In this document: in pieces, positions 10,526 through 10,933 of the stretch
How positions within the stretch are numbered: position 1 is the first letter of the stretch
How the letters are laid out: the number at the start of each line of letters is the position of its first letter
Assembly (NCBI GenBank): GCA_048939465.1
Contig: JBHLPL010000034.1
Location: 1 to 17,866, forward strand
From: Promethearchaeota archaeon
Lineage (GTDB): Archaea > Asgardarchaeota > Odinarchaeia > Odinarchaeales > JBHLKK01
Direction: 5' to 3'
Length of the DNA stretch: 17,866 nt
The notes under the pieces: model-generated
What the model was told of the DNA's origin: nothing
Database searches by the model: none
The model's input: only the letters and a program-made list of their open reading frames with translations
Made by a program: the position numbers and the translations under genes

Positions 10526-10711
10526 TGGTCCCGCCGACCGGATTTGAACCGGTGACCCTTACTGAAGCATCACCAATTTCAGTAATACTTTCTCGGTGTC
10601 TGCTGTCTGAGCACAGGTTGAGATACACAAGACAGGACGTCAAGCGCTACAGCCGAGTGCTCTGCGACTAAGCTTTCGCCGCCGTAAGCTTCTGCTTATG
10701 GCTACGGCGGG
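10526..10711 (-). tRNA. tRNA-Tyr(GTA) with three introns: 8/9 (10703-10675, 29 nt), 37/38 (10646-10598, 49 nt), about 43/44 (10591-10559, 33 nt)
   Basis: Acceptor stem CCCGCCG/CGGCGGG with C1:G72 and A73 (archaeal Tyr identity); encoded CCA; T arm ACCGG-TTCAAAT-CCGGT; anticodon stem CTCGG/CCGAG with loop CTGTAGA after intron removal. Spliced length 75 nt. BHB-type motifs at all three inserts. Confidence 0.88.
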
Positions 10712-10744
10712 TTGGCGGAACCATAGTTAATTGGTCAAGATTTT

Positions 10745-10756
10745 TTATTTAAACTT
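10745..10756 (-). promoter_or_regulatory. TATA box for tRNA-Tyr
   Basis: Minus strand AAGTTTAAATAA; the TATA box ends about 35 nt upstream of C1. Confidence 0.7.
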
Positions 10757-10790: not shown

Positions 10791-10802
10791 AAGTTTAAAT
10801 AA
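10791..10802 (+). promoter_or_regulatory. BRE/TATA for tRNA-Asp
   Basis: AGAAGAAAG-TTTAAATA about 28 nt upstream of G1 at 10830. Confidence 0.75.
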
Positions 10803-10829: not shown

Positions 10830-10933
10830 GCCCGGGTGGTGTAGTCCGGTCTATCATCTGGGACTGTCAACATCATAAGTCCAGACAAGGCAGAGCTCCC
10901 AGGACTCGGGTTCAAATCCCGGCCCGGGCGCCA
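10830..10933 (+). tRNA. tRNA-Asp(GTC) with canonical 37/38 intron (10870-10895, 26 nt)
   Basis: GCCCGGG/CCCGGGC acceptor stem, G73, encoded CCA; anticodon stem TGGGA/TCCCA with loop CTGTCAC after splicing; BHB central helix CTGT/GCAG with bulges CA|A and AG|C. Confidence 0.93.

Follow-up and report, generated by a model that had tools for sequence, protein, structure and literature searches.

How far can an archaeal tRNA gene be broken and still work? The question is raised by a tRNA-Tyr(GTA) gene of an uncultured Asgard archaeon in which a 29-nt insert appears to separate U8 from A9, two nucleotides in the core of the tRNA fold, as an intron whose splicing motif would borrow bases of the acceptor stem. 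The gene occupies positions 10711-10526 on the minus strand of the window, by which we mean the whole 17,866-nt stretch of DNA that was analyzed, and is interrupted by three inserts (all of its features given below are on the minus strand). Exon 1 (10704..10711, CCCGCCGU) comprises tRNA positions 1-8, that is, CCCGCCG and U8, and is followed by the 29-nt insert at 8/9 (intron 1, 10675..10703). Exon 2 (positions 9-37, 10647..10674) holds the D arm, the 5′ strand of the anticodon stem and the anticodon GUA, within the anticodon arm sequence CUGUAG. After G37 come a 49-nt insert at the canonical 37/38 site (intron 2, 10598..10646), exon 3 (positions 38-43, ACCGAG, 10592..10597) and a 33-nt insert in the variable region, at 43/44 or 44/45 (insert 3, 10559..10591). 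Exon 4 (10526..10558) supplies the GGGUC variable loop, a standard T arm, CGGCGGG, A73, and an encoded CCA, and is followed by a TTTT run (10525-10522).

Removal of the three inserts leaves a 75-nt mature form with standard arms. The archaeal tyrosine identity set consists of C1:G72, A73 and the anticodon GUA, all of which this gene has. It is the one copy of tRNA-Tyr that we found in a genome that is 91% complete.

As the preliminary description of this locus had anticipated, standard tRNA scanners miss the gene. ARAGORN returned no match to the locus, with or without its intron option, and neither did the Rfam tRNA model at its gathering threshold; with an E-value threshold, the Rfam model gave a partial match of 19 bits to model positions 9-63. 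Since the only tRNA-Tyr gene of the lineage is invisible to both scanners that were run, tRNA-Tyr would be reported as missing. Annotations of this lineage would thus lack it, and intron censuses of Asgard archaea would undercount the junction positions.

Distribution of the 29-nt insert

We searched 40 related genomes for orthologs of the tRNA-Tyr gene. Those of the same order comprise this genome (G000), two congeners (G001 and G002) and four members of a sister genus (G003-G006); no further genus of the order was found. The whole three-insert gene, including the 29 nt, is present in G001 and G002 with 92% and 90% identity, and is the sole tRNA-Tyr match in each. In all four sister-genus genomes, CCCGCCGTAGCTTAGTGGCAGAGC is uninterrupted and the 29-nt insert is absent, as it is from five tRNA-Tyr genes of other families in the phylum. 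The junction CCCGCCGT-AGCT is contiguous in all nine insert-less orthologs (four from the sister genus, five from other Asgard archaea), which fixes the exon junction as CCCGCCGT-AGCTTAG. Splicing out the 29 nt restores the contiguous sister-genus sequence. The 29 nt had been read as an intervening sequence before any genome comparison, and the survey of related genomes bears this out by supplying orthologs without them. We also considered whether exon 1 might be a decoy, with the true 5′ strand located elsewhere, and rejected this idea, because the sister-genus genes begin with a contiguous sequence identical to exon 1.

Because the insert is present in three congeneric genomes and absent from nine orthologs, the sequences point, by parsimony, to a gain of intron 1 within the genus after its split from the sister genus. 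When 400 genomes of the phylum were surveyed with the 5′ strand of tRNA-Tyr followed by 12-48 extra bases and the D arm, only the three genomes of this genus matched. Independent metagenome studies yielded contigs of identical sequence in which the 29-nt insert is kept, indicating that the insert is not an assembly artifact. It is also kept in a metagenome strain that is ~90% identical, and no intron-less allele was seen among the contigs. When metagenome contigs were scanned with exon 1 and the intron ends, three chance matches in non-tRNA sequence and no further homologs were recovered. The pattern CCCGCCGT-N12-42-AGCTYAGTSGYAGAGC proved too loose for a scan of genome contigs: it drew chance matches in bacteria, and the useful one among the matches listed was a congener (L094).

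To look for signs of transposition, we compared the three introns with the rest of the genome by BLAST and obtained only chance matches of 10-16 bases (no more than 13 nt exact). Unlike the transposed intron families of Thermoproteales, the introns of this gene have no sequence-related intron elsewhere in the genome.

The splice motif of intron 1

Owing to an AGC repeat, the 29-nt insert can slide from 8/9 to 11/12 without altering the product, giving four placements and one mature RNA, as had been pointed out in the preliminary description. We scored every placement with a script for bulge-helix-bulge (BHB) geometry, which requires an outer helix, a 4-bp helix and, on each strand, a 3-nt bulge cut after its second base. 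The script was calibrated on the canonical 37/38 introns of tRNA-Tyr and the neighboring tRNA-Asp, both of which gave a central helix (H) of 4/4 pairs and an outer helix (h) of five. At 8/9, the insert forms a 3-4-3 BHB. In the central helix, C3-C6 (CGCC, 10709-10706) pair with GGCG of the intron (10680-10677) at all four positions. The bulges are G7-U8-A, of which G7 and U8 are the first two bases, and A-A-A9, with the intron's AA at 10676-10675. The inner helix consists of GCC/GGC (h′, 10702-10700 with 10683-10681), an A·C mismatch and UAAGC/GCUUA (10698-10694 with 10689-10685), 3+5 bp in all, closing an AGAA loop (10693-10690). The outer helix is the single pair C2:G10. These details reproduce those first read from the sequence alone, as does the finding that 8/9 is the sole placement with a BHB: 9/10, 10/11 and 11/12 give 0-1 of four central pairs, and G001 and G002 likewise yield the motif at 8/9 only.

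This arrangement is rarely matched by chance. Among 20,000 shuffled sequences, a 4/4 central helix with an h′ of at least 3 bp at the exact border occurred in 0.005% (mononucleotide shuffles) and 0.025% (dinucleotide shuffles), and within ±3 nt of the border in 0.07-0.12%. When we moved the 29-nt insert to every position of the mature tRNA, 8/9 alone gave a 4/4 central helix. On sequence grounds, we regard it as confirmed that the 29-nt insert is a true intron of the BHB type, acquired recently at the acceptor/D junction of a tRNA gene that is essential to its Asgard host.

Could the insert instead be removed at 9/10, 10/11 or 11/12, through a relaxed motif and with the acceptor stem kept formed? 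All four placements yield one mature RNA and an identical circular intron; they are not separable by sequence comparison, and for the same reason the test suggested earlier, a tRNA spliced elsewhere, cannot tell them apart. Broad-specificity EndA enzymes do cut relaxed motifs (PMC3239211). However, these placements offer 0-1 of four central pairs, and when the acceptor stem was enforced during folding, no bulge-helix arrangement appeared at the insert borders. We consider removal at any of these three sites very unlikely.

One part of the preliminary description needs correction. It called the BHB strict, but as the outer helix is the single pair C2:G10, the motif is of the relaxed HBh′ type in the nomenclature quoted by PMC3239211, not a strict hBHBh′ motif. 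The one-pair outer helix also places the 3′ splice site in a junction rather than in a closed bulge; in the minimum-energy fold, this site lies in a multiloop. Strict hBHBh′ motifs are the substrates of α4 and α′2 EndA, whereas relaxed motifs are cut by broad-specificity enzymes (PMC3239211).

The genome encodes two EndA paralogs of 204 and 191 amino acids, each with an N-terminal PF02778 and a C-terminal PF01974 domain; by eye, only the 204-residue paralog has His-Ser after the conserved Tyr. Judged from their sequences, the two paralogs are consistent with an (αβ)2 broad-specificity enzyme. Two paralogs fit the (αβ)2 type as described (PMC3239211), and the two-paralog pattern of Asgard archaea has been read in the same way (bioRxiv 10.64898/2026.10.13.758758). 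An RtcB ligase is also encoded. One of the two RtcB matches is a 973-amino acid open frame (contig C31, 2961-5708, minus strand) in which the profile is split into two distant parts, a sequence arrangement that suggests an intein in this RtcB gene.

The intron-bearing sequences (n = 3) share 90-92% identity overall and 97% over the aligned segment from the leader to the D arm. All 13 pairs of the motif are paired in each of the three, with no double change and one one-sided change in this 97%-identical segment. Variation that preserves pairing consists of a U:A/U:G difference in G001 and G002 and a G:C to G:U change in the ~90% identical strain, which are accompanied by one loop change. As the three sequences are too alike, covariation is uninformative and conservation of the leader carries little weight.

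Intron 1 is ordinary in kind. Thermoproteales contain multi-intron tRNA genes with introns at non-canonical positions, including 3/4 in the acceptor stem (Sugahara 2008, as summarized in the review PMC4090602). Like those introns, as far as they are characterized in that review, intron 1 is short, protein-spliced by type, based on a 3-4-3 BHB and located outside 37/38 in a gene with three inserts; the Thermoproteales genes have up to three introns each, some of these introns also use acceptor-stem bases, and their hosts have two-subunit EndA. The preliminary description had drawn this parallel, and multi-intron tRNAs are indeed known in Thermoproteales (PMC4090602), but the host here is an Asgard archaeon, and heavily interrupted tRNA genes have also been published for this group (PMC11291895; bioRxiv 10.64898/2026.10.13.758758). 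Those Asgard genes resemble ours in carrying multiple non-canonical introns per gene that standard annotators often miss, in showing lineage-specific recent gains and in coming from hosts with two EndA paralogs. The focus of the Asgard studies is on Atabeyarchaeia, Freyarchaeia and Jordiarchaeia; Odinarchaeia go unmentioned in the text of the preprint, and no leader pairing is described.

What is unusual about intron 1 is its position, together with its apparent dependence on the leader. The acceptor/D junction 8/9 is not among the Thermoproteales positions named in the review PMC4090602. A full-text literature search that included PMC4090602, PMC4033280, PMC3218864, PMC3728597, PMC8450103, PMC3239211 and PMC2237900 (the primary position catalogs lie outside its range, and "8/9" is not searchable as a string) turned up no mention of the site.

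Leader pairing and a possible order of processing

Since C3-C6 are used in both, the splice motif and the mature acceptor stem are mutually exclusive, as the preliminary description had recognized, and the central helix formed by C3-C6 and the intron's GGCG would have to compete with the acceptor stem. The sequence immediately upstream of the gene bears on this conflict. Separated from C1 by an AA spacer (10713-10712) is a 10-nt segment, UGGUUCCGCC (10714..10723), that is complementary to G67-A76 over 10 bp, one of them G-U. The duplex between this leader and the 3′ end of the tRNA is worth -20.3 kcal/mol in G000 and -20.2 kcal/mol in both G001 and G002. The corresponding values are 0 to -6.1 kcal/mol in the nine intron-less orthologs, and the best among 22 other tRNA genes of this genome is -6.9 kcal/mol. 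Transcription of archaeal genes usually starts ~26 nt from the TATA box. From the TATA-like box read from the sequence at 10746..10753 (TTTAAATA), a start is predicted near 10723, which would include the whole leader segment; together with the AA spacer, the leader would then be 12 nt long.

Folding of the precursor depended on the leader. Without it, or with a leader shorter than 8 nt, the minimum-energy fold contained the acceptor stem and no motif. With a leader of at least 8 nt, the minimum-energy fold of the full precursor paired the leader with the 3′ end and contained the 8/9 motif. This fold was favored over one with the acceptor stem enforced in all three genomes (-81.8 versus -75.2 kcal/mol in G000, -83.5 versus -77.5 in G001, and -87.6 versus -77.6 in G002). 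In these models, then, the motif of intron 1 apparently depends on the leader holding the 3′ end.

We weighed two readings of the leader. In the reading we favor, to which we assign a probability of about 0.78, the 29 nt are a U8/A9 intron that was gained in the genus and is spliced by EndA and RtcB through a relaxed HBh′ motif, while the leader holds the 3′ end. In the other, the intron and its cut sites are the same but the leader has no role: the motif would form only co-transcriptionally, and the complementarity of the leader would have arisen incidentally, in the event that gave rise to the insert. Several observations fit a leader without a role. Among 5′ prefixes of 50-185 nt, which receive no help from the 3′ end, the motif was the minimum-energy fold in all but the 170-nt prefix, so that it should be available during transcription. 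The 3′ half of the intron (AAGCUUACGGCGG, 10677-10690) matches mature positions 2-13 in reverse complement, save for one extra base, and the leader (10714-10723) likewise matches positions 67-76 in reverse complement, save for one change. These sequence relationships hint that the insert and the leader arose from a local inverted duplication, and both could stem from one rearrangement. Lastly, removal of intron 1 leaves the leader duplex still ahead by 2.5-3.7 kcal/mol in nearest-neighbor energy, a result that sits poorly with a purposeful switch. On the other hand, a useless duplex of -20 kcal/mol would impede RNase P and ought to be lost over time, and yet all three species preserve it intact despite differing at 8-10% of positions. 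We judge a leader without any role unlikely.

If the leader does hold the 3′ end, processing could proceed as follows. The transcript would begin near 10723, and the motif would fold from the leader, exon 1 and intron 1. The 3′ end, as it emerges, would be captured by the leader. EndA would then cut at the sites that we infer, after U8 and before A9, and RtcB would join the exons. Once freed, the 5′ strand could take the place of the leader in an acceptor stem, after which RNase P would remove the leader. Given that the leader duplex is still favored after splicing, secondary structure alone does not account for the passage of the precursor to RNase P; formation of the acceptor stem and the RNase P step would have to rely on tertiary folding or on proteins. 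Coupling to the leader predicts a fixed order of processing, with splicing followed by 5′ trimming. Sequestration of the 3′ end by a leader suggests a simple RNA-folding answer to the conflict between splice signal and acceptor stem. Our literature search found no paper in which a leader ties up the 3′ end so that a 5′-proximal splice signal can form.

Pairing of the leader with the 3′ end sets this gene apart from the Thermoproteales introns and invites comparison with the split and permuted tRNA genes of Nanoarchaeum, Caldivirga and Thermofilum (PMC3218864, PMC4033280). There, too, leader or trailer sequence helps to build the helices around the BHB, and EndA acts before the ends mature. Unlike those genes, tRNA-Tyr is contiguous and co-linear, and its leader is not part of the BHB but would sequester the competing 3′ strand. 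A broader proposal is that archaeal tRNAs can accept introns in or beside their 5′ acceptor strand only if a "leader decoy" is present; this near-copy of the 5′ strand, located upstream, would hold the 3′ end and so free the real 5′ strand. It would be a general device across archaeal phyla, with tRNA-Tyr as an Asgard example. We offer this generalization tentatively, at slightly less than even odds. If it were true, splicing would obligatorily precede RNase P cleavage.

Intron 2, insert 3 and other tRNA genes

The canonical 37/38 motif of intron 2, with a CUGU/GCAG central helix and the 5-bp anticodon stem as outer helix, is present in all seven genomes of the order. Insert 3 is also common to both genera, with a length of 33 nt in this gene and 25 nt in the sister genus, and forms a hairpin. 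We placed its borders by comparison with compact Asgard tRNA-Tyr genes that have a 5-nt variable loop, NGGTC. A canonical BHB was sought at 43/44 and 44/45, in both the primary and the spliced context, and none was found; motifs inside the insert that overlap one another are not conserved between the two genera. In the sister genus, insert 3 ends in a repeat of exon positions 40-43, CGAG (one genome has CGGG), and this end has the spacing of a BHB with only 2-3 of four central pairs. Insert 3 may use a relaxed motif or depend on prior splicing and, conceivably, it stays in the tRNA as a long variable arm. Of the triple-intron tRNA-Tyr initially described, the three inserts stand, but the third lacks a canonical motif at its exon borders.

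G18 of the D loop is nearly universal in tRNAs. At 10666, this gene has C in its place, reading AGUCGCA where all six relatives have AGUGGCA. Since the same base is present in contigs of independent studies, the C is not an assembly error, and the sequence change raises a small doubt about full function of the tRNA.

Might the gene then be decaying or non-functional, with the insert left unspliced and a working tRNA-Tyr in the unassembled 9% of the genome? The G18-to-C change, the third insert without a canonical motif and the 91% completeness of the assembly would all accord with such a copy. However, no second tRNA-Tyr was found in this genome, and G001 and G002 each gave a single match, to the same three-insert gene. 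Across the seven genomes of the order, the exon sequences are the same or almost the same, whereas the intron loops differ. Moreover, the gene has kept its promoter, its identity elements, the CCA it encodes and the T-run, all of them intact. We consider a decaying copy extremely unlikely.

A tRNA-Asp(GTC) gene lies divergently from tRNA-Tyr at 10830-10933 on the plus strand. It carries a canonical 37/38 intron with the same CUGU/GCAG central helix. Each of the two genes has one TTTAAATA box, at 10795-10802 for tRNA-Asp and at 10753-10746 for tRNA-Tyr, and the leader predicted for tRNA-Asp is ~5 nt.

Elsewhere in the genome, inserts in the D loop or T arm push tRNA genes below the Rfam threshold at three loci (C118:3949-4062, C24:1209-1340 and C2:10738-10870). 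With only ~30 detectable tRNA genes, annotation of the tRNA complement in this lineage is seriously incomplete.

Neither Rfam nor ARAGORN detected a probable tRNA-His(GTG) gene on contig C46 of G000 (~17969-18140, plus strand). Two copies of its 5′ strand, including G-1 and U8 (GGCCGGGAT), lie 15 nt apart; U8 of the second one is followed by an insert, and a CGGG/CCCG central helix forms there at all four pairs. In the minimum-energy fold that includes the upstream copy, this copy pairs with the 3′ end. On the basis of this modeled fold, we regard the locus as a second candidate for a leader decoy in the genome.
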